A DNA stretch of 64,000 bases from an uncultured Candidatus Saccharibacteria bacterium (GTDB lineage Bacteria > Patescibacteriota > CALEFQ01), in NCBI GenBank assembly GCA_965230955.1, contig OZ246404.1, positions 289,184 through 353,183 on the forward strand, written 5' to 3'. The translations under genes were made by a program, and so were the position numbers. Positions within the stretch are counted from its first letter, which is position 1, and every line of letters starts with the position of its first letter. Of this stretch, positions 2,299 through 56,592 are shown one piece after another. Below the pieces are notes generated by a model. That model saw nothing but the letters and a program-made list of their open reading frames with translations. It had not been told where the DNA came from and did not search any database.

Positions 2299-3069
2299 AT
2301 GAAGTCCAAAAACACATCCTCTAATGATGCTACGGCTCAAGTTTATGACATTGTCTGGGGGCCATTCACTAATCGAACCAAAACGGAACGAGAAGTGAAA
2401 TTCGTTTCCCGGCGCATTCGAGCCGGCGGAACCATTTTGGATCTGGGCTGTGGCACGGGGCGCCATTTGATTCCTTTGGCCCGGCGCGGATACCGCCTGG
2501 TCGGCATAGATAATTCCCGAAAGATGCTTGATATTCTGCGAAAAAAAATATCCGCGCACATGTTTCCACCCCGCCTGATTTTCGGTGATTTGCAGAGAAA
2601 AATAAAATTGCCCTTGGCTGACGGGGCAATTTGTTTTTGGAATGCTTTTTGTGAAATGGCGCTGACACCGGCGGCGGCCAAGCGAATTTTCCGGGCGGTC
2701 AATCAATCACTGAAAAAGCCGGGGATGTTTTTAATCGAGACGCCTAATCCGTTGATCATGGATTTGCGGGCCGGAGAATTCAGGAATTCGATCAGCCGGC
2801 GCGGAATCAAATATGATATACGGTTTTGGATAAAACATTATGATGTCAGGCGTAAAATTTTGACGGCGGAAGAGGAAGTGACCATTATCCGAAAAGGGCA
2901 GGTGTCGATAAAGCTCCGAGCGGCGTGCCGGCAGAAACTGTGGTCGGCGCGCGAACTCAAACTTTTGGCGCGCCAAGCCGGTTTGGCGCACCAGGAATTG
3001 CGGGGCGATGGTTTTGGCCGATTTTCTCGGGGATCTTCCCGCCATCAGATACAGGTGTTCTCGAAGTAA
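2299..3069 (+). CDS. Class I SAM-dependent methyltransferase
   Basis: Motif I ILDLGCGTGRH and a Rossmann-type layout; GGAGGG RBS upstream. Confidence 0.65.
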   Translation: MKSKNTSSNDATAQVYDIVWGPFTNRTKTEREVKFVSRRIRAGGTILDLGCGTGRHLIPLARRGYRLVGIDNSRKMLDILRKKISAHMFPPRLIFGDLQRKIKLPLADGAICFWNAFCEMALTPAAAKRIFRAVNQSLKKPGMFLIETPNPLIMDLRAGEFRNSISRRGIKYDIRFWIKHYDVRRKILTAEEEVTIIRKGQVSIKLRAACRQKLWSARELKLLARQAGLAHQELRGDGFGRFSRGSSRHQIQVFSK

Positions 3070-3077
3070 TCAAAAAA

Positions 3078-3140
3078 ACTCCCCCCACACTCAGGATTTG
3101 AAATATCCTTTCCAATGCCTGAGTGTGTGGGGAGTTTTAA
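3078..3140. repeat. Hairpin element of the CCCCACACTCAGG family (copy 1) between convergent genes; probable bidirectional terminator
   Basis: AACTCCCCCCACACTCAGG-loop-CCTGAGTGTGTGGGGAGTT. Stem and loop are near-identical to the copy at 59389-59454. Confidence 0.6.
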
Positions 3141-3148
3141 ATTGGAGC

Positions 3149-5323
3149 CTAGGGATTACCCAACATGATGCCGACAACCTTCGAGCCGTTGAGGAGATAG
3201 GCTTTGTTGGTGGTTTCATCTATGGCCATCCCGCGCAGATCGGTGAAGGTATCGGAGATGTATTGGTTTTTCATTTGACCGTCTTTGTCGAAAACCACCA
3301 GGCGTTTGTTTTGAGGATCGAGTATATAAATGCTGGCGGAATTTTCGTTGGTATAAATGGCGGTCGGCTGGTTTAGCGGAGTAGTCATTTCTCCCAGGTT
3401 GAATTCTTGGCGATTGCCGCGCAGAAATTTCAGTACCCGGCCGTCGCTGGTCAGGACATAAACCGAGCCGTCAATAGTGAGGTCTACCGCGCCGCTGAGA
3501 TCAACATCTTCCGTTAGCCAGTTGCTGGGCTTGGAAAAACCGCCGACTGTCAGTGAATGGCGTTGAATTCGATTATTGGCCGGATCAAGCGTGTAGAGCC
3601 GGTTCCCGAAAAGGCTAAGGGCCACGATTTGTTGGTCGGCGGGGAGCTCCGCGTCGGCTTCGTCCACGCTGGTGCCGTTAAAGGTGAAGCTGATCAGGGC
3701 CGGACTCGAGGATAGCAGAGCGACTTCTTTTTCGCTGTTGGCGATTGCTTTCAGCTGACCGGATGTTTTAACTTCCACGGCTTCAAATTTTTTGTCGCTC
3801 AGAAGATAAGTGTAAATTGAAGGCTGATTGGGATTGTATGAGGCCAAATATTTATCAGCCAGGATTAAGCCTTGGGGATTCACTCCGTTGCCCAGAGTGG
3901 AAAAATCTGCAACTGATTCCGGATTTTCCACCAGGGTGATGTGGTTGAGGCGCTGGCGTTCTTTTTCGATTTGGGCCAGAACGGCGGCGGCTTCATCATT
4001 GCGGTATTTAGTGGCTTGGACATCCTCGGCAATCTTTTGCGACTCATCTAATAATTGGCGCGCCTTGGCGTCGTTGCCGTAGATCAGAGCGGCCTGAGCC
4101 TCTTCTTGTTTCTGGCGGGCTTCGGTGGTGAGATTGTTGTATATCGCTCGTTGTTCTTGTGTCTGTTTACCGCCTTGTACCGCGAATAGGCTGATCAAAA
4201 AGGCGATGATCAGCGCCACAACGACAATGAAGAGTATTTTGCTGGTTTTGGGCAGCTTGTTGAACCAAGTGACGAATGATTCCCAGATTACTTTGCTTAA
4301 GTTCTGAATTGTCAGTAATAATTTTTTCCACCAGGGTTTGCGGCGCAAATCGGTATAAGCATAGGGCTTCCGGCTGGTGAGCGGTTCTTGGAGAGAGGGA
4401 GCCGCAGCGGATGGTTTTGGAGTTCTGGCAGTTTTGTCGTTTGACGCGATTTTCTTCCCTTTGAGTAACGGTAAAATTGTATTCTTGGTGCCGGAGGCTG
4501 TCTTGGCCGCGATTGAACGCAGGATGCGTGATGTTCGAGCTAAGGCTCCCGGGGTCTGTCGGGGAGTGGCGCCGGCTCGGGGCGCGCTTTCCGACTTAAC
4601 GGTGATATTTGGCATTGCGGCCGGTGCGGGGAGAGGTGACTTGGCCGGATCGGCTGCACTGACAATCAAGGCCGCCATGGCTTTCTTTTCCTGGAAAGAC
4701 ACCAATTTGCTCTGCAGGTGGCGTGCCGCAATATCAGGGGTAAAACGATCGATAATTTCTTTTATCTTTGGTTTTTCGATGTAGTCGAGGATGGAAGGTG
4801 AGAGAAAGACGAACTTGTCGTCGGGATTGAGTTTGCCGTTGATTATATTTTCGTAAGTTTTGAGAGGGTTGGGTTTTAGCGGAACCGAAGAGCTCTCTTT
4901 ATTGAGATGGGCCAGCTGTTGTCGGCGAACCAGAAAGGCGGAAGCGAGTCCGGAAGAAGTCAGGAATATTTCCTCTCCGACGATGGCGGTGATAACGCTG
5001 TTTAGTTTTCCGATCCAGCTGATTTCTCCGGCGGAGGCGAGGTCGCCCAGGATATCATTGACGCGCTTGATGGCGTACTCGAATTGTTGCTCGGCGGTTC
5101 GCTCGCTGGGGTGGTAGTATTCGTTTTGCATGATGGAAGCGATCGCTTCGGAAATTTCGGCGGTCTTGGGTGTTTTTTCGTCCGAGCTGATTAAGATCAT
5201 TAATCGTCCGTATGGTTCTTCTTCTTTTTCTTCCGGCTCAAAAACAAAAGTTTCAGCGAAGCCTTCGGAGGCATCGGGATTATAAATCAAAAGTTCGCTG
5301 ACGGTGGTATGTAGTTTGGGCAT
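3149..5323 (-). CDS. Membrane-anchored protein with a central TM helix and coiled coil plus a C-terminal NHL/YVTN-like beta-propeller repeat region
   Basis: 724 aa. TM segment FIVVVALIIAFLISLFAV, QEEAQA coiled-coil stretch, and C-terminal repeats of the type YTLDPANNRIQRH and IYILDPQNKRLVVFDKDG. Confidence 0.45.
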   Translation of the reverse strand: MPKLHTTVSELLIYNPDASEGFAETFVFEPEEKEEEPYGRLMILISSDEKTPKTAEISEAIASIMQNEYYHPSERTAEQQFEYAIKRVNDILGDLASAGEISWIGKLNSVITAIVGEEIFLTSSGLASAFLVRRQQLAHLNKESSSVPLKPNPLKTYENIINGKLNPDDKFVFLSPSILDYIEKPKIKEIIDRFTPDIAARHLQSKLVSFQEKKAMAALIVSAADPAKSPLPAPAAMPNITVKSESAPRAGATPRQTPGALARTSRILRSIAAKTASGTKNTILPLLKGKKIASNDKTARTPKPSAAAPSLQEPLTSRKPYAYTDLRRKPWWKKLLLTIQNLSKVIWESFVTWFNKLPKTSKILFIVVVALIIAFLISLFAVQGGKQTQEQRAIYNNLTTEARQKQEEAQAALIYGNDAKARQLLDESQKIAEDVQATKYRNDEAAAVLAQIEKERQRLNHITLVENPESVADFSTLGNGVNPQGLILADKYLASYNPNQPSIYTYLLSDKKFEAVEVKTSGQLKAIANSEKEVALLSSSPALISFTFNGTSVDEADAELPADQQIVALSLFGNRLYTLDPANNRIQRHSLTVGGFSKPSNWLTEDVDLSGAVDLTIDGSVYVLTSDGRVLKFLRGNRQEFNLGEMTTPLNQPTAIYTNENSASIYILDPQNKRLVVFDKDGQMKNQYISDTFTDLRGMAIDETTNKAYLLNGSKVVGIMLGNP

Positions 5324-16617: not shown

Positions 16618-17709
16618 ATGTCAAAACGAATACGTAAAATCACTTTTCCTCATATGGGGCACTACGATGCCGCTTTTGAGGAAATAATGCGGGCGATGGG
16701 TCATATTCCGGTCATGCCCGACCCGATCAATCGGGCGACGGTGGAAACGGGCGTGAAATACGCCCCGGAATTTATTTGTTTTCCCTGCAAAGTAAATATC
16801 GGCGATGAGTTGAACGGTATTGCCAAAGGCGCGGACACGGTGGTGATGTTTTCCTCGAACGGTCAATGTCGCTATCGATATTACGCGGCGGTTCAGCGAA
16901 AGATTTTACATGATTTGGGCCAGAAGATTGATTTTTTTATTTTCACTCCGCGAGATTGGCTGAAAAAATTCAGTGAATTGACTAATCGAAATTATTTCAG
17001 TTTGCTCCTTAGATTTGTCAGTGCTTGGCGCAAAGTGAAAACTACGGAACTGGTGGAGCAGCTCGGTTATTACTACCGTCCGCGCGCTCTGCATCCGGAA
17101 CGTGTCGGAGGCATTCAGCAACGTTGCTGGAAATTAATCAGCCAAACAAAGTTGAAGAGCTATTTTAATTACCGCCGTTTGAAGCGGCAGATCAGAGAGG
17201 AATTCGAGGAAATAGAAATCAAGGATAATTTCCAGCCGTTGCGAATCGGGATTATTGGAGAAATATATAGCGTCATCGAGCCTTTTGTGAATCAGAATAT
17301 CGAGGAGTCCCTGGGTAACCTGGGAGTGGAAGTGACGCGTCGGTTGAATTTATCTCATTTTGTAAAAGAATTTCAGCCGTGGAACAAACGGTACGAAGCG
17401 CGGTTGACCCGTCCTTATATCGGTTATGTGGTTGGCGGTCATGGTCGAACTTCCGTGCTGCATTTGCTAGAGTATTGCCGGGAAAATTTTGACGGCGTGA
17501 TCCATCTGGCGGTTTTCGGCTGTATGCCGGAAGTGACGGTTCGCCCGATCCTCTCAAAGATCAGTCAGCAAAAAAACATGCCGTTTATTTCTCTGTCCCT
17601 TGATGAGCATAGCGGCCAGGCGGGAGTCCAGACACGGGTGGAGGCGTTTGTGGATTTGATTAAAGGAAAAATCCGAAATCCGAAATCAGAAATCCGAAAC
17701 AATACTTAA
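16618..17709 (+). CDS. HgdAB/DUF2229-family subunit, set A subunit 2
   Basis: Conserved Cys in EFICFPCK and AVFGCMPE, and a C-terminal LDEHSGQAGVQTRVEAFVD motif. Paralogous to 35613-36773. The C-terminal tail IRNPKSEIRNNT is encoded by a GAAATCC heptamer repeat. Confidence 0.6.
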   Translation: MSKRIRKITFPHMGHYDAAFEEIMRAMGHIPVMPDPINRATVETGVKYAPEFICFPCKVNIGDELNGIAKGADTVVMFSSNGQCRYRYYAAVQRKILHDLGQKIDFFIFTPRDWLKKFSELTNRNYFSLLLRFVSAWRKVKTTELVEQLGYYYRPRALHPERVGGIQQRCWKLISQTKLKSYFNYRRLKRQIREEFEEIEIKDNFQPLRIGIIGEIYSVIEPFVNQNIEESLGNLGVEVTRRLNLSHFVKEFQPWNKRYEARLTRPYIGYVVGGHGRTSVLHLLEYCRENFDGVIHLAVFGCMPEVTVRPILSKISQQKNMPFISLSLDEHSGQAGVQTRVEAFVDLIKGKIRNPKSEIRNNT

Positions 17710-17796
17710 GTCCCAATCATTAAATTATAAACTTTTAAATTTTGGGATTGGAATTTGGGAATTGTTTCGTGCTTTGATATTCGAATTTCGAATTTT
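17666..17796. repeat. Heptamer (GAAATCC) tandem repeat palindromic element overlapping the 3' end of gene 16618-17709
   Basis: GAAATCCGAAATCCGAAATCAGAAATCCGAAAC ... TCGAATTTCGAATTTT, with an inner CCCAATC/GGGATTGG palindrome. Confidence 0.55.
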
Positions 17797-26287: not shown

Positions 26288-26333
26288 GTCATTAGTCGTT
26301 AGTCTTTAGCCAACGACTAATGACTAAAGACTA
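26288..26333. repeat. Palindrome GTCATTAGTCG-N15-CGACTAATGAC with AGTCTTTAG repeats (murF terminator region)
   Basis: Perfect 11-bp stem; same heptamer family as at 19151 and 30034. Confidence 0.55.
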
Positions 26334-44349: not shown

Positions 44350-44435
44350 ACTTGATTTTTCTGGATAAATAAGTATAGTTAGTGAGGTTGATTTGTGTTT
44401 TGACTTTTGACTTAGTTTTAGGCCCTTAGATCATC

Positions 44436-44533
44436 CTATTGCGCGCTCACTTCGTTCGCGCTTCGTAGAACAGGAACCGATAGATTAATGCGGGCCTGTC
44501 CTACGAAGCTCTCGCGAAGCGAGAGCGTAGTAG
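44436..44533. mobile_element. MITE-like inverted-repeat element (about 100 bp) inserted immediately 5' of tRNA-Ala(GGC); flanked by a duplicated tRNA 5' end (GGCCCTTAGaTCATC at 44421-44435 vs GGCCCTTAGcTCATC at 44535-44549)
   Basis: Terminal inverted repeats CGCTCACTTCGTTCGCGCTTCGTAGAACAGG / CCTGTCCTACGAAGCTCTCGCGAAGCGAGAGCG; direct repeat read from sequence. A paralogous element lies upstream of tRNA-Lys. Confidence 0.5.
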
Positions 44534-44609
44534 GGGCCCTTAGCTCATCTGGTAGAGCGTTCCCATGGCATGGGAGAGGTGACCGGTTCGAGTCCGGTAG
44601 GGTCCACCA
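44534..44609 (+). tRNA. tRNA-Ala (anticodon GGC)
   Basis: GGGCCCT-TA-GCTCATCTGGTAGAGC-G-TTCCC-ATGGCAT-GGGAG-..-ACCGGTTCGAGTCCGGT-AGGGTCC-A-CCA; G3:U70 Ala identity pair present. Confidence 0.85.
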
Positions 44610-44686
44610 TGTATCATTCTTGCGCATAGCAGAAATGCAATGCCGATTGTAAGAACCTTTGAGCTATTTGATAATTTCAAGAAATT

Positions 44687-45229
44687 ATGGCAATACGAAT
44701 AACTTATTTTGTTCACGGAACAACGACTGATAATGAAAAAAATGTTTCATCCGGTTGGTTTGATGTGGAACTTTCAAAGCTCGGTGTCAAGCAGTCAATT
44801 GAGCTGAAAGATAAGATCAAGGATAAAAAATTTGATATTGTCTTTTGTTCTGACTTGAAGAGGGCGGTCGACTCGGCAAAGCTTACCTTTGAGGGACAAG
44901 TCCCAATTTTGCAAGAGAAGAGATTGCGGGAATGCAATTATGGCAAGTATAATGCTCAGCCATCTGAGATCGTTGAACCAATGCAGGAAAAAAGCATTTT
45001 CGAAAGATTTCCCGAAGGTGAAAGCTATGAAGATGTGAAATTGAGAATTGCTGATTTTCTAGAGTTTCTGAAAAAAAACTATGACGGGAAATCGGTTGCG
45101 ATCGTAGCCCACAAGGCACCACAACTCGCATTAGATGTTTTGCTGAAAAAGAAGACTTGGGAACAAGCTTTCGCAGAAGATTGGCGTAAACGAAAAGCTT
45201 GGCAGCCTGGCTGGGAGTATAATATCTAG
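44687..45229 (+). CDS. Histidine phosphatase superfamily protein (phosphoglycerate mutase-like)
   Basis: N-terminal ITYFVHGTTTDNE (RHG-like) and overall branch-1 layout. Confidence 0.5.
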   Translation: MAIRITYFVHGTTTDNEKNVSSGWFDVELSKLGVKQSIELKDKIKDKKFDIVFCSDLKRAVDSAKLTFEGQVPILQEKRLRECNYGKYNAQPSEIVEPMQEKSIFERFPEGESYEDVKLRIADFLEFLKKNYDGKSVAIVAHKAPQLALDVLLKKKTWEQAFAEDWRKRKAWQPGWEYNI

Positions 45230-45342
45230 AGCGTGATGTTTTCTATCGGGAAATATATAGTTATGTTAATTGAATAGTAGGAATTTGTGTTTCCTTGCCG
45301 GTGTCCATGAAAAAAGTTCGAACATCCTCCGCTAGGGACCAC

Positions 45343-45390
45343 CAGCCCCACACTCAAGTTTTTTTCAAAAAAAACTTGAGTGTGGGGCTG
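45343..45390. repeat. Perfect palindrome of the CCCCACACTCA family (copy 2)
   Basis: CAGCCCCACACTCAAGTTTTTTT-C-AAAAAAAACTTGAGTGTGGGGCTG. Confidence 0.6.
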
Positions 45391-45519
45391 GAAAACCAAA
45401 GTTCAAAGCTTAAAATTCAAAGGAAATTTAAAATACAAACTTCAAGTGGTTTTGAATTTTGAGTTTTGCACTTTAGATTTTCAGTCCGTCTTGGGCGGAC
45501 TGTCCATGGGCACATAGCT

Positions 45520-45622
45520 TCCTCTCTCGCGCTTACTTCGTTCGCGCTTCGTAGAACAGGCTGCTGGCAATCAACCAGCAACGGGCCTGCCCTACGAAGC
45601 TCTCGCGAAGCGAGAGCGTAGT
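45520..45622. mobile_element. Second MITE-like inverted-repeat element inserted immediately 5' of tRNA-Lys; flanked by a 12-nt direct repeat of the tRNA 5' end (GGGCACATAGCT at 45508-45519 and 45623-45634)
   Basis: TIRs CGCTTACTTCGTTCGCGCTTCGTAGAACAGG / CCTGCCCTACGAAGCTCTCGCGAAGCGAGAGCG; the right end is identical to the copy at 44496-44533. Confidence 0.5.
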
Positions 45623-45698
45623 AGGGCACATAGCTCAGTCGGTAGAGCAGCTCCCTTTTAAGGAGAAGGTCGCAGGTTCGATTCCTGCTGTGCCCACC
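45623..45698 (+). tRNA. tRNA-Lys (anticodon TTT)
   Basis: GGGCACA-TA-GCTCAGTCGGTAGAGC-A-GCTCC-CTTTTAA-GGAGA-AGGTC-GCAGGTTCGATTCCTGC-TGTGCCC-A-CCA. Confidence 0.85.
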
Positions 45699-45864
45699 AC
45701 GCCACATCCCGGCCAGAGCCGGGAGTGGAAATCTAAAGCTTAAAGTTTAAAATTCAAAGGAAATTCAAAAACCAAAGTCTAAAACCGATTTCATATTTAA
45801 ATTTTGATCTTCCTTTGAATTTTTTTCTTTAAACCTTGGACTTTCACCGACGGGCGGTTACCCC

Positions 45865-45940: not shown

Positions 45941-45988
45941 AACCGCGCGCCTGGAGTTTAGGCGAGGTCAGCGGTTACCAGAGATCCA

Positions 45989-46917: not shown

Positions 46918-46994
46918 GGGCGCATAGCTCAGTTGGTTAGAGCGCACGCTTCACACGCGTGAGGTCTCAGGTTCGAATCCTGATGCGCCCACCA
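46918..46994 (+). tRNA. tRNA-Val (anticodon CAC)
   Basis: GGGCGCA-TA-GCTCAGTTGGTTAGAGC-G-CACGC-TTCACAC-GCGTG-AGGTC-TCAGGTTCGAATCCTGA-TGCGCCC-A-CCA. Confidence 0.85.
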
Positions 46995-50961: not shown

Positions 50962-51028
50962 AGTCAAAAATCAAAAGTCAAAAGTGCGATGATTTAACTT
51001 TGGACCTTTGACTTTTTACTTTTGACTT
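50962..51028. repeat. Heptamer (GTCAAAA) palindromic element
   Basis: AGTCAAAAATCAAAAGTCAAAAGT...TTTGACTTTTTACTTTTGACTT. Confidence 0.6.
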
Positions 51029-55780: not shown

Positions 55781-55800
55781 CCTGCCTGCCGGCAGGCAGG
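55781..55800. terminator. Perfect GC palindrome CCTGCCTGCCGGCAGGCAGG after the ybaK-like gene
   Basis: Read directly. Confidence 0.5.
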
Positions 55801-55896
55801 TAAAAGAAATTTAAAGGCAAGAGCTTAAAGCATGACCCTTTAGATTTTAAGCTTTGAATTTCTTTTAAACTTTTCGTCTTTTAGCTTTAGATTTTC

Positions 55897-56592
55897 ATGT
55901 ACAAGGTTCAACTCGCTCAATTTACCGGTCCGCTCGATTTACTCCTGCAGCTGATCGAGAAAGAAGAAATGGACATCACGACTGTCAGCCTGGCCAAGGT
56001 GGCGGATCAGTATTTGGATTACATGAATCAGATTGAAAACTTGAGCCCGCGGGATATCGCCGAATTTTTAGAGGTGGCGGCGCGCCTGATCTTGATCAAG
56101 TCCAAAGCGCTTTTGCCTCAGCTGGAATTCAGCGATGATGAAGAATTAAGCGCCGAGGAATTGGCCCTGCGTCTGCAGGAATACAAAAAGTTCAAGCAAG
56201 CCGGGCTGGGATTACGCCGGCTTTTGGATCGGAAGCATTATTCTTTCGGCCGGCAGATTTATCTGGAGGAAGAAAAAGTATTCAGCCCCCCGCCGGACTT
56301 GACGACGCAGACTTTGCGCGAAACTTTTGCCGCTGTTTTGGGCGCGGTGCCCCAGATGGATTATTTGGAAGAAGAGGTAATGGTTGACGTCGTGTCGCTG
56401 GAGGATAAAATAGACCATATCCGTAGTACTCTGACGGAGAAATTAAATACCCATTTTCATAAGTTGCATGATTCCAAGTCCAAGATGGAAATTATCGTTA
56501 CTTTCCTGGCTATGCTAGAATTGATGAAACAGCGAATCATTGACGTGAACCAGGATCAGATTTTCGGCGCGATTGAGTTGAAAAAGATATAA
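55897..56592 (+). CDS. scpA: Segregation and condensation protein A
   Basis: MYKVQLAQFTGPLDLLLQLIEKEEMDITTVSLAKVADQYL. Confidence 0.8.
   Translation: MYKVQLAQFTGPLDLLLQLIEKEEMDITTVSLAKVADQYLDYMNQIENLSPRDIAEFLEVAARLILIKSKALLPQLEFSDDEELSAEELALRLQEYKKFKQAGLGLRRLLDRKHYSFGRQIYLEEEKVFSPPPDLTTQTLRETFAAVLGAVPQMDYLEEEVMVDVVSLEDKIDHIRSTLTEKLNTHFHKLHDSKSKMEIIVTFLAMLELMKQRIIDVNQDQIFGAIELKKI

Follow-up and report, generated by a model that had tools for sequence, protein, structure and literature searches.

Palindromic units at the 5' edge of tRNA genes in a Candidatus Saccharibacteria genome: a candidate non-autonomous mobile element

Introduction

Why do the first bases of two tRNA genes occur twice in this stretch of DNA, and what is the sequence that separates the two copies? 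The stretch (64,000 nt of an uncultured Candidatus Saccharibacteria bacterium; assembly GCA_965230955.1, contig OZ246404.1, positions 289,184 to 353,183 of the forward strand; hereafter the window, at its full length) contains two imperfect palindromes of 100–104 nt, 44434-44533 and 45520-45623, which stand at the starts of tRNA-Ala(GGC) and tRNA-Lys(TTT), respectively, each preceded by a short copy (hereafter the ghost) of the first bases of the tRNA that follows. An earlier note on this DNA had taken them for small non-autonomous transposable elements directed to tRNA 5' ends. The reading favoured in the present work, with a probability of about 0.5, is close to that: a palindromic element, non-autonomous and directed to the 5' edge of tRNA genes alone, which would duplicate the first 8–16 nt of its target and be co-transcribed with it as a leader hairpin. 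It is based on the observed anatomy of the unit, its exclusive association with tRNA position +1, ghosts made of each tRNA's own bases, several copies per genome, empty and filled sites, and conserved helices. Of the earlier proposal, the palindromic non-coding insert at +1 and its multi-copy status (at locus L054; loci outside the window carry L numbers) were borne out; ghosts that run far into tRNA genes are left unexplained by it.

The units in the window

Five tRNA genes were located in the window with ARAGORN and confirmed by Rfam; the palindromic unit precedes two of them. The features are as follows (the hp1 hairpin is defined below):

44352 to 44379, plus strand: promoter-like site TTGATT-16-TATAGT upstream of the Ala ghost, from a consensus scan only
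44421 to 44435, plus strand: Ala ghost, GGCCCTTAGaTCATC, bases 2–16 of tRNA-Ala(GGC) (14/15); its last two bases overlap the element start
44434 to 44474, plus strand: Ala copy, left hairpin module, TCCTATTGCGCGCTCACTTCGTTCGCGCTTCGTAGAACAGG; its homologues are the TCCTCC-type modules in L054 and L047
44475 to 44494, plus strand: variable centre of the Ala copy, AACCGATAGATTAATGCGGG, of a type shared with the tRNA-Lys copy of L022
44495 to 44533, plus strand: right module of the Ala copy, a reverse hp1-type hairpin with the inner stem CTCTCGC/GCGAGAG, stopping one base before tRNA +1
44534 to 44609, plus strand: tRNA-Ala(GGC), intact (ARAGORN; Rfam 55.5 bits)
45484 to 45507, plus strand: native leader of tRNA-Lys, hairpin GTCCGTCTTGGGCGGAC then TGTCCAT; it precedes ghost fragments in L022 too
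45508 to 45519, plus strand: Lys ghost, GGGCACATAGCT, bases 1–12 of tRNA-Lys; AGCT (bases 9–12) may be element-derived
45520 to 45560, plus strand: left hairpin module of the Lys copy (arm comparison; alignment with the other clade)
45561 to 45585, plus strand: Lys copy, variable centre, formed by the small hairpin CTGCTGG-CAATCAA-CCAGCA and replaced by another centre in the L022 orthologue
45586 to 45623, plus strand: right hairpin module of the Lys copy, touching tRNA +1
45624 to 45699, plus strand: tRNA-Lys(TTT), anticodon UUU, intact (ARAGORN; Rfam)
46918 to 46994, plus strand: tRNA-Val(CAC), empty in the window, with an insert at the corresponding site of L022, L024 and L025

The left arms of the two copies (44434-44474 and 45520-45560) matched each other at 90% over 41 nt and the right arms (44491-44535 and 45582-45626) at 98% over 45 nt, the last 33 nt before the tRNA being the same in both; the central 20–25 nt were unrelated. 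Inserts of ~100 nt with identical right ends and differing centres, as described in the earlier note, are therefore confirmed. Its terminal inverted repeats of ~33 bp are present as inverted arms, which proved to be 40 nt long, 75–78% complementary within each copy, and built as two opposed hairpin modules with CGTAG motifs at the module borders. On either strand, each copy folds into a single long hairpin (z = −4 to −6); in the predicted fold the ghost is able to pair with the 3' acceptor strand of the tRNA. The sole open reading frame (ORF) across the unit is an antisense frame of 96 aa that also spans the tRNA, and the tRNAs directly downstream of the units are uninterrupted (55–76 bits).

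The duplicated 5' ends were found as claimed: GGGCACATAGCT at 45508-45519 is repeated at 45624-45635 (12/12, spacing 116), and GGCCCTTAGaTCATC at 44421-44435, which begins at base 2 of tRNA-Ala, recurs at 44535-44549 (14/15, spacing 114); the Ala ghost runs on with CA, bases 13–14 of the tRNA. Chance repeats were ruled out by an expectation of 0.004 for a 12-mer (≤1 mismatch) within 350 nt upstream of the five tRNAs. An assembly artefact was likewise ruled out, the same junctions being present in independent Logan assemblies of four runs and in the relative L022; Logan contigs from the source genome are short and break off inside the repeat. The copy count for the source genome covers the 64-kb window, in which neither arm had a further match at ≤3 mismatches or by nhmmer (controls: 0/100 shuffles with any match).

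Empty and filled sites in close relatives

Proteins encoded next to the units have their best relatives in Patescibacteria, in lineages that the databases call Pacebacteria or Shapirobacteria. The relative L022 was found via the 90% cluster of the window AspRS (synteny route: 90% clusters of AspRS and FtsJ). At the tRNA-Lys locus it is 94% identical to the window over 419 columns; ghost, arms and +1 junction are as in the window, and the centre is swapped for that of the window Ala type. In both genomes the native leader (hairpin GTCCGCCTTGGGCGGAC + TGTCCATG) precedes the upstream 12-mer; the original 5' end is therefore to be seen in the upstream copy, and the new copy in the downstream tRNA.

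At tRNA-Val(CAC) of the window the leader continues directly into the tRNA. In L022, L024 and L025 the same leader and bases 1–12 are followed by a 175-nt insert starting with TCCTCCTTCG, after which GGGCGCATAGCT recurs and the intact tRNA follows (187 nt start to start). Here two genomes with 94% identity in non-coding DNA form a pair of empty and filled site, which is the outcome of the comparison of relatives that had been suggested with the original proposal. The insert belongs to the same hairpin family and is different from the ~100-nt two-module unit.

Two side observations were made in these relatives. Directly 3' of tRNA-Lys, L022 carries a 78-aa GIY-YIG nuclease gene (3447-3733) that is not in the window, followed by a duplicate of the 3' part of tRNA-Lys with an 18-nt palindrome in the T-arm. 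The tRNA-Ala(CGC) genes of L025 (20-95) and L022 (4004-4079) differ in the 5' two-thirds and have the same 3' end; that of L025 has a 5:68 mismatch in the acceptor stem and looks chimeric, from recombination within the tRNA.

Multi-copy two-module units

The layout of the window copies (ghost, left module, spacer, right module, tRNA) is shared by L054, L047 and L046. A copy is made up of a left module starting (AGCT)TCCTC, a short variable centre, a reverse hp1-type right module, and a right end at +1. In L054, an unrelated contig, the units stand at tRNA-Ile(TAT), Val(GAC), Val(TAC) and, three times in tandem, at Leu(TAA), i.e., at least six copies; those at Val(GAC) and Val(TAC) and two of the Leu copies are 89–98% identical to one another, the tRNA-Ile copy contains nested inserts, and the third tRNA-Leu unit is partial. 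Each copy follows the first bases of its own tRNA and stops at +1. Four of the seven tRNAs of L054 carry the unit; the three others, in the same 10 kb, are without it.

The length of the duplicate was estimated from tRNA-Leu. Its ghost reads GCCGAGGT-AGCT and the tRNA itself GCCGAGGT-GGTG, i.e., GCCGAGGTGGTG; from this mismatch AGCT is taken to be unit-borne, so that only 8 nt are duplicated and AGCTTCC...GTGGG travels as a block. Bases 9–12 happen to be AGCT in the Val, Ala, Lys and Ile tRNAs, and for this reason the duplicate appears to be 12 nt there; since the Ala ghost continues with CA (bases 13–14), the duplicate length lies between 8 and 16 nt. A direct repeat of the tRNA's own bases was found at every copy, of 8 nt (L054 Leu), mostly 12 nt or 8 + AGCT, and at least 14 nt (window Ala). 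Of the 12–15-nt target-site duplication in the earlier proposal, the own-tRNA repeat at each copy stands, and the length needs revision, with 8 nt at L054 Leu and AGCT probably carried by the element.

As a side observation, a 223-aa ORF lies between tRNA-Phe and tRNA-Gly in L054 (8462-9133); weak Pfam hits point to an HTH at its N-terminus, and its motif LFLIGVALYWAEGYK by eye resembles LAGLIDADG; a similar C-terminal sequence, again by eye, is encoded just upstream of tRNA-Ile in L046. The L054 ORF is possibly a free-standing homing endonuclease.

The wider hairpin family

One junction, "tRNA bases 1–12 + TCCTC..TCG", is common to the Lys element and the Val insert. A scan of GTDB representatives for this junction gave 17 matches, equal to the chance expectation; 7/17 nonetheless precede a tRNA gene (4/7 labelled Patescibacteria), and in 6/7 an intact tRNA 90–230 nt downstream starts with the identical 12 bases. 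Nine additional matches in JGI metagenomes were obtained with a tighter junction pattern.

The hairpin common to these loci (hp1) consists of an outer stem TCCTCC/GGAGGA, a 3 × 3 pyrimidine internal loop (TTC or TAC opposite TTC) and a variable inner stem-loop, followed by CAGG, CAAG or CGGG. Its structural descriptor gave 29 matches in ~0.4 Mb, in both orientations, vs ~1 in shuffles; all but ~5 were at tRNA genes or tRNA fragments (the exceptions are four matches that look spurious or come from a contig outside Patescibacteria, and L046 4944-4975, close to the end of its contig). With this descriptor the right arm of each window copy was recognised as an hp1-type hairpin in reverse orientation, and the left arm aligned with the forward TCCTCC-type module. 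To judge from these sequences, what had been described as terminal inverted repeats are two opposed, differently built hairpin modules of a tRNA-locus family that is widespread in Patescibacteria; it is their face-to-face arrangement that gives the complete unit the look of a long imperfect palindrome.

Two tandem ghost-plus-hairpin units are carried by L034, which is labelled Gammaproteobacteria and is syntenic with the Patescibacteria contig L042 (ClpB, MazG-like, small membrane proteins; ~75% identical); the contig is probably mis-binned. A further observation concerns the minus strand of L030 (~2900-3230), where a complete tRNA-Val(TAC) lies inside the anticodon loop (35/36) of another, split tRNA-Val, with 14-nt inverted repeats (CCCCGTTAAATTTT / AAAATTAACGGGG) on its flanks; of the split gene, the 5' half occurs twice.

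Structural conservation

The copies of the window/L022 clade and of the L054/L047 clade are 53–61% identical. RNAalifold indicated three consecutive helices common to both; on the consensus structure 96.5% of the cells are paired and nine pairs are changed on both sides, compared with ≤3 double-sided pair changes in slid-partner controls, and no shuffle attained the observed covariation score. The palindromic shape is maintained; the relevant form may be DNA or RNA. Conservation of the leader across distant taxa had been named beforehand as an argument for a regulatory leader rather than a mobile element. The result goes part of the way in that direction: the architecture is kept in distant lineages with compensatory changes, and selection on a DNA or RNA structure is therefore possible.

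The favoured reading and its weak points

In the favoured reading, staggered cleavage within the first 8–16 bp of the tRNA gene would duplicate those bases; an intact tRNA would be regenerated downstream, and the 5' strand of the acceptor stem would be left as a ghost on the native leader and promoter. Transcription would proceed from the old promoter (candidate: 44352-44379, upstream of the Ala ghost) through ghost and element, and the ~40-bp leader hairpin would be removed by RNase P, possibly following RNase III cleavage. The mobilising enzyme would act in trans, being encoded outside the window. Its targets include genes for Ala, Lys, Val, Ile and Leu tRNAs, so that what it recognises must be some property shared by tRNA starts and not one sequence. 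Slippage between the direct repeats around the palindrome would give tandem arrays, precise loss and swapped centres.

Several findings weigh against this reading. No transposase, integrase or Y1/HUH/RAYT was detected by Pfam among 50 ORFs of the window, where the earlier note had likewise seen neither a transposase nor a further copy; no transposase, integrase or RAYT lies beside the L054 and L022 copies (Pfam or NCBIfam); and neither a full-length autonomous relative nor an ORF-bearing copy was met among the loci examined. The spread of duplicate lengths (8, 12, ≥14 and 19 nt, the last from a second hairpin type of L022, "B", which comes after 19-nt ghosts) is not normally given by a single transposase. 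In single-module relatives the order is bases 1–12, hairpin, CAGTTGG (bases 13–19), i.e., the tRNA sequence resumes past hp1. The ghosts of L039 and L051 comprise tRNA-Val bases 1–62, with tRNA-derived parts identical to the intact gene, and are broken by three hairpins that have no flanking repeats and stand behind base 12, behind G19 and in the T-loop; they fit hairpin invasion of a duplicated gene better than target-site-duplicating insertion. L030 has two 5' halves, the L053 ghost extends to the anticodon arm, and in L022 a tRNA-Ala gene is split around another tRNA-Ala. For these other family members a target-site duplication was therefore abandoned, the upstream copy resuming past the hairpin with bases 13–19 and extending up to base 62. 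In each of the syntenic pairs L030/L039, L031/L045 and L034/L042 the two contigs come from different GTDB species representatives and have the unit at the same tRNA, from which it follows that many copies are old and vertically inherited. Finally, the compensatory changes rest on essentially two clades, and arm-to-arm templated correction in a DNA palindrome can yield such changes and so mimic selection.

Database searches gave the following results. Rfam 15, at the gathering threshold and at E ≤ 10, returned only the tRNAs and sub-threshold, chance microRNA-like hairpin noise; self-cleaving ribozymes, group I introns and known leaders were rejected by these searches up to E ≤ 10, and a hammerhead-like core in the CTCTGAT stem proved to be a mere stem, not present in the window copies. 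The exact right-arm 24-mer had no match in GTDB species representatives or JGI metagenome contigs, genomes of the same species evidently being outside both. Scans of viral contigs (both arms, junction, L054-type right module) gave no match and so lend a phage origin no support. Six-frame translations of both copies, joined into one peptide query so as to pick up spurious ORF calls over further copies, had no match at E ≤ 10 among 5.8 billion proteins. Literature searches gave no description of such tRNA-start palindromic elements.

Alternative explanations

The main rival starts from a tandem duplication of the tRNA gene, together with a few leader bases. Hairpins would invade the loops of the upstream copy (entry points: positions 12/13, after G19, the anticodon loop and the T-loop), which would then decay by deletion; the 12–15-nt "duplication" would be the last remnant of a dead gene and no target-site duplication. 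The upstream copy would never be wholly lost because the only promoter lies upstream of it. Such a history accommodates the tRNA-Val 1–62 copies with three hairpins upstream of the intact gene in L039 and L051, the two 5' halves of L030, the L053 ghost that reaches the anticodon arm, and the single-module units, which are many. It is also in line with L031 and L034, where the final 6–10 nt ahead of the intact tRNA repeat the native leader, and with L022, where ghosts of various lengths are stacked at tRNA-Val and tRNA-Ala(CGC). The Leu ghost of L054, GCCGAGGT+AGCT, is unexplained by it, bases 9–12 being foreign to that tRNA; unexplained as well are the near-identical whole units at four tRNAs of one genome and the constant end of the right module at exactly +1. 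A mobile, tRNA-seeking hairpin is still required, and the difference from the tRNA-edge element lies only in the origin of the duplicate. Hairpin invasion of duplicated tRNAs followed by decay is favoured for at least part of the family; the model as set out here is judged unlikely.

Somewhat less probable again is a functional leader module, in which the hairpin and the copy of the acceptor strand would be selected as part of the pre-tRNA leader and spread by gene conversion; the roles proposed are a processing platform for RNase III/RNase P, a chaperone in folding or a decoy for the 3' acceptor strand, or insulation against upstream transcripts. In its favour are the retention of the architecture at 53–61% identity with compensatory pairs in three helices, the fixed orientation relative to the tRNA, the constant abutment on +1, the syntenic copies of L031 and L045 (two stems differing by compensatory changes, flanks unalignable) and the predicted pairing of the ghost with the 3' acceptor strand. 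The distribution of the unit is hard to reconcile with such a role: it is found at only 2/5 tRNAs of the window and 4/7 of L054, and one and the same tRNA, Val, is without it in the window but carries another insert in a relative of 94% identity. Modules are found in either orientation and also within fragments of dead tRNAs, centres are freely swapped, no Rfam family was matched, and the tandem triplication at tRNA-Leu has no obvious use.

The weakest alternative, a scar of integration or homing in which the direct repeats would be attL/attR-like remnants of an integrase or homing-endonuclease cassette and the palindrome its leftover ends, is highly improbable: the repeats agree with the acceptor stem of the respective target, down to bases 5 and 7, which an attP core carried by one element could not supply for 4–5 tRNAs, and no copy was found with an ORF between the modules. 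An integrase att remnant was rejected on related grounds, since the repeats are of the 5' end and differ from tRNA to tRNA for one element, and no integrase is present in the window; integrases normally use the 3' part of a tRNA gene. What speaks for a scar is that the tRNA loci are clearly recombination hot spots: the GIY-YIG gene of L022 lies between tRNA-Lys and the duplicated 3' part of tRNA-Lys, small GIY-YIG genes are also near such tRNAs in L042 and L050 (within ~300 nt of ghost-bearing tRNAs), a LAGLIDADG-like HTH ORF is in the tRNA cluster of L054, tRNA-Val is nested between 14-nt inverted repeats in L030, tRNA-Ala(CGC) of L025 is chimeric, and 3' tRNA fragments occur in the window at 45316-45344 and 45945-45976. 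The GIY-YIG and HTH-LAGLIDADG-like neighbours mark the loci as hot spots of selfish DNA; they link no enzyme to the palindromes.

Comparison with known systems

Bacterial MITEs (miniature inverted-repeat transposable elements; Correia/NEMIS, RUP, ERIC) are non-coding units of ~100 bp, bounded by inverted repeats, with direct repeats of the target and no transposase of their own. The window unit resembles them in its 100–104 nt, non-coding character, inverted arms and direct repeats of its own target, in the several near-identical copies per genome, and in presence/absence between relatives. It differs in that every tRNA-start unit was seen at +1 and in one orientation, whereas MITEs are scattered in intergenic DNA, and in that no parent insertion sequence (IS) with matching ends was found, the arms being two unlike hairpin modules. 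The direct repeats of MITEs are 2–10 bp long (PMC11602168); those of the tRNA-start unit are 8–16 nt, possibly of variable length. That general survey of MITEs makes no mention of such tRNA-start units (PMC11602168).

Imperfect hairpins of 35–40 nt with a conserved internal mismatch, their inverted doublets of ~100 nt with a variable spacer that fold as one hairpin, and genome-specific stems are features that the unit shares with REP/REPIN sequences, as is the CGTAG at the module borders. REP/REPIN sequences are mobilised by RAYT; REPINs occupy hundreds of dispersed extragenic sites without target duplication. In the window, by contrast, there are two copies in 64 kb, both at tRNA +1 and with flanking duplicates, and no RAYT (Pfam). 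The unit is best filed as MITE/REPIN-like with an unprecedented target and as a member of neither class, no parent IS having been found at the loci examined and the location being tRNA-only with duplicates.

Short single or double hairpins of a similar kind are the mobile GC-rich hairpins of fungal mitochondria (GC clusters of yeast, double hairpins of Allomyces), which insert in or near structural RNA genes of AT-rich, reduced genomes; the domain of life and the sequences differ from those of the tRNA-start unit. We know of no enzyme for these hairpins and of no report of tRNA +1 specificity or duplication of the acceptor strand.

Targeting of the upstream edge of tRNA genes is known from the yeast element Ty3. 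It is likewise a property of TRE5-A of Dictyostelium, for which this edge is a "safe haven" where the tRNA keeps its function (PMC3159450). Both are autonomous retroelements, are guided by Pol III transcription factors and land some distance upstream, whereas the tRNA-start unit is a bacterial palindrome of 100 nt placed exactly at +1 with copied first bases.

The inserts described in Patescibacteria tRNAs are group I introns, i.e., self-splicing ribozymes of 200 nt and more in the anticodon loop of otherwise single genes (PMC13011429); the palindromic unit is unmentioned there. The phylum and the choice of tRNA genes as targets are common to both; the present insert lies outside an intact tRNA and has no Rfam intron or ribozyme. 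A tRNA intron was rejected in view of the uninterrupted tRNA downstream (55–76 bits) and the lack of an intron or ribozyme family even at E ≤ 10.

Implications

If the tRNA-edge element is real, it would be a bacterial mobile element with a novel target, the exact 5' boundary of tRNA genes across several isoacceptors, and would account for odd tRNA fragments and hairpins near tRNA genes in Patescibacteria metagenome assemblies; the repeats also break short-read assemblies. It would raise the RNA-processing question of how RNase P handles a 40-bp hairpin abutting +1, and would provide a natural system for the survival of essential single-copy RNA genes under invasion. With a unit of only ~100 nt and so strict a target, the enzyme would be attractive as a tool for site-specific insertion.

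A broader and more doubtful extension is that Patescibacteria harbour a hitherto undescribed class of tiny palindromic modules which recognise tRNA genes by shape or by a shared processing landmark instead of by sequence, and enter at +1 and in the loops (12/13, after G19, anticodon loop, T-loop), invasion being survived only through partial gene duplication. It would imply that tRNA genes are continually born and lost, leaving ghosts, nested tRNAs and chimeras, in genomes otherwise known for extreme streamlining, and the first prokaryotic counterpart of Ty3/TRE5 tRNA-targeted integration, with a new targeting mechanism.

Further observations in the window

A second, AT-rich inverted-repeat family of ~100 nt was noticed at 45385-45487 and 45722-45847 (left halves 82% identical; both also in L022), upstream of the tRNA-Lys ghost and of tRNA-Ala(CGC); weaker intergenic copies lie at 55800-55900, 50963-51026 and 17668-17789. 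From the sites TGGAAA-16-TAAAAT, this family may carry tRNA promoters.

Further tRNA fragments are present. At 45303-45344 the leader motif GTCCATG is followed by an apparent tRNA 3' end with the body deleted (GTTCGAACATCCTCCGCTAGGGACCACCA); this 3' ghost, kept in L022, lies just ahead of the terminator of a phosphatase gene. Directly after tRNA-Ala(CGC), 45945-45976 is a 32-nt partial duplicate of the anticodon-to-T-arm region (78% identical; scrambled loop GGAGTTT); of this 3' duplicate there are two longer versions in L022, L024 and L025, whose anticodon loop and T-arm carry inserted hairpins.

The histidine-phosphatase gene between the two unit-bearing tRNAs (44687-45229) has thousands of relatives, the best 120 at 79–87% identity, in many Patescibacteria and in unrelated neighbourhoods, one of them a resolvase/HNH/abortive-infection-like island; relatives of the neighbouring DUF7670 gene are ≤60% identical, and one is archaeal. 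By this distribution the phosphatase gene looks horizontally mobile. A perfect 24-bp palindrome with an A/T-rich centre at 45342-45391 (CCAGCCCCACACTCAAGTTTTTTT / AAAAAAACTTGAGTGTGGGGCTGG), kept in L022, probably serves as a terminator in both directions downstream of the phosphatase gene.

Just upstream of tRNA-Glu(CTC), a perfect 13-bp hairpin was found at 26290-26332 (GTCATTAGTCGTT / AACGACTAATGAC); its sequence is unrelated to the palindromic units, and the tRNA stands there without a duplicate of its 5' end.

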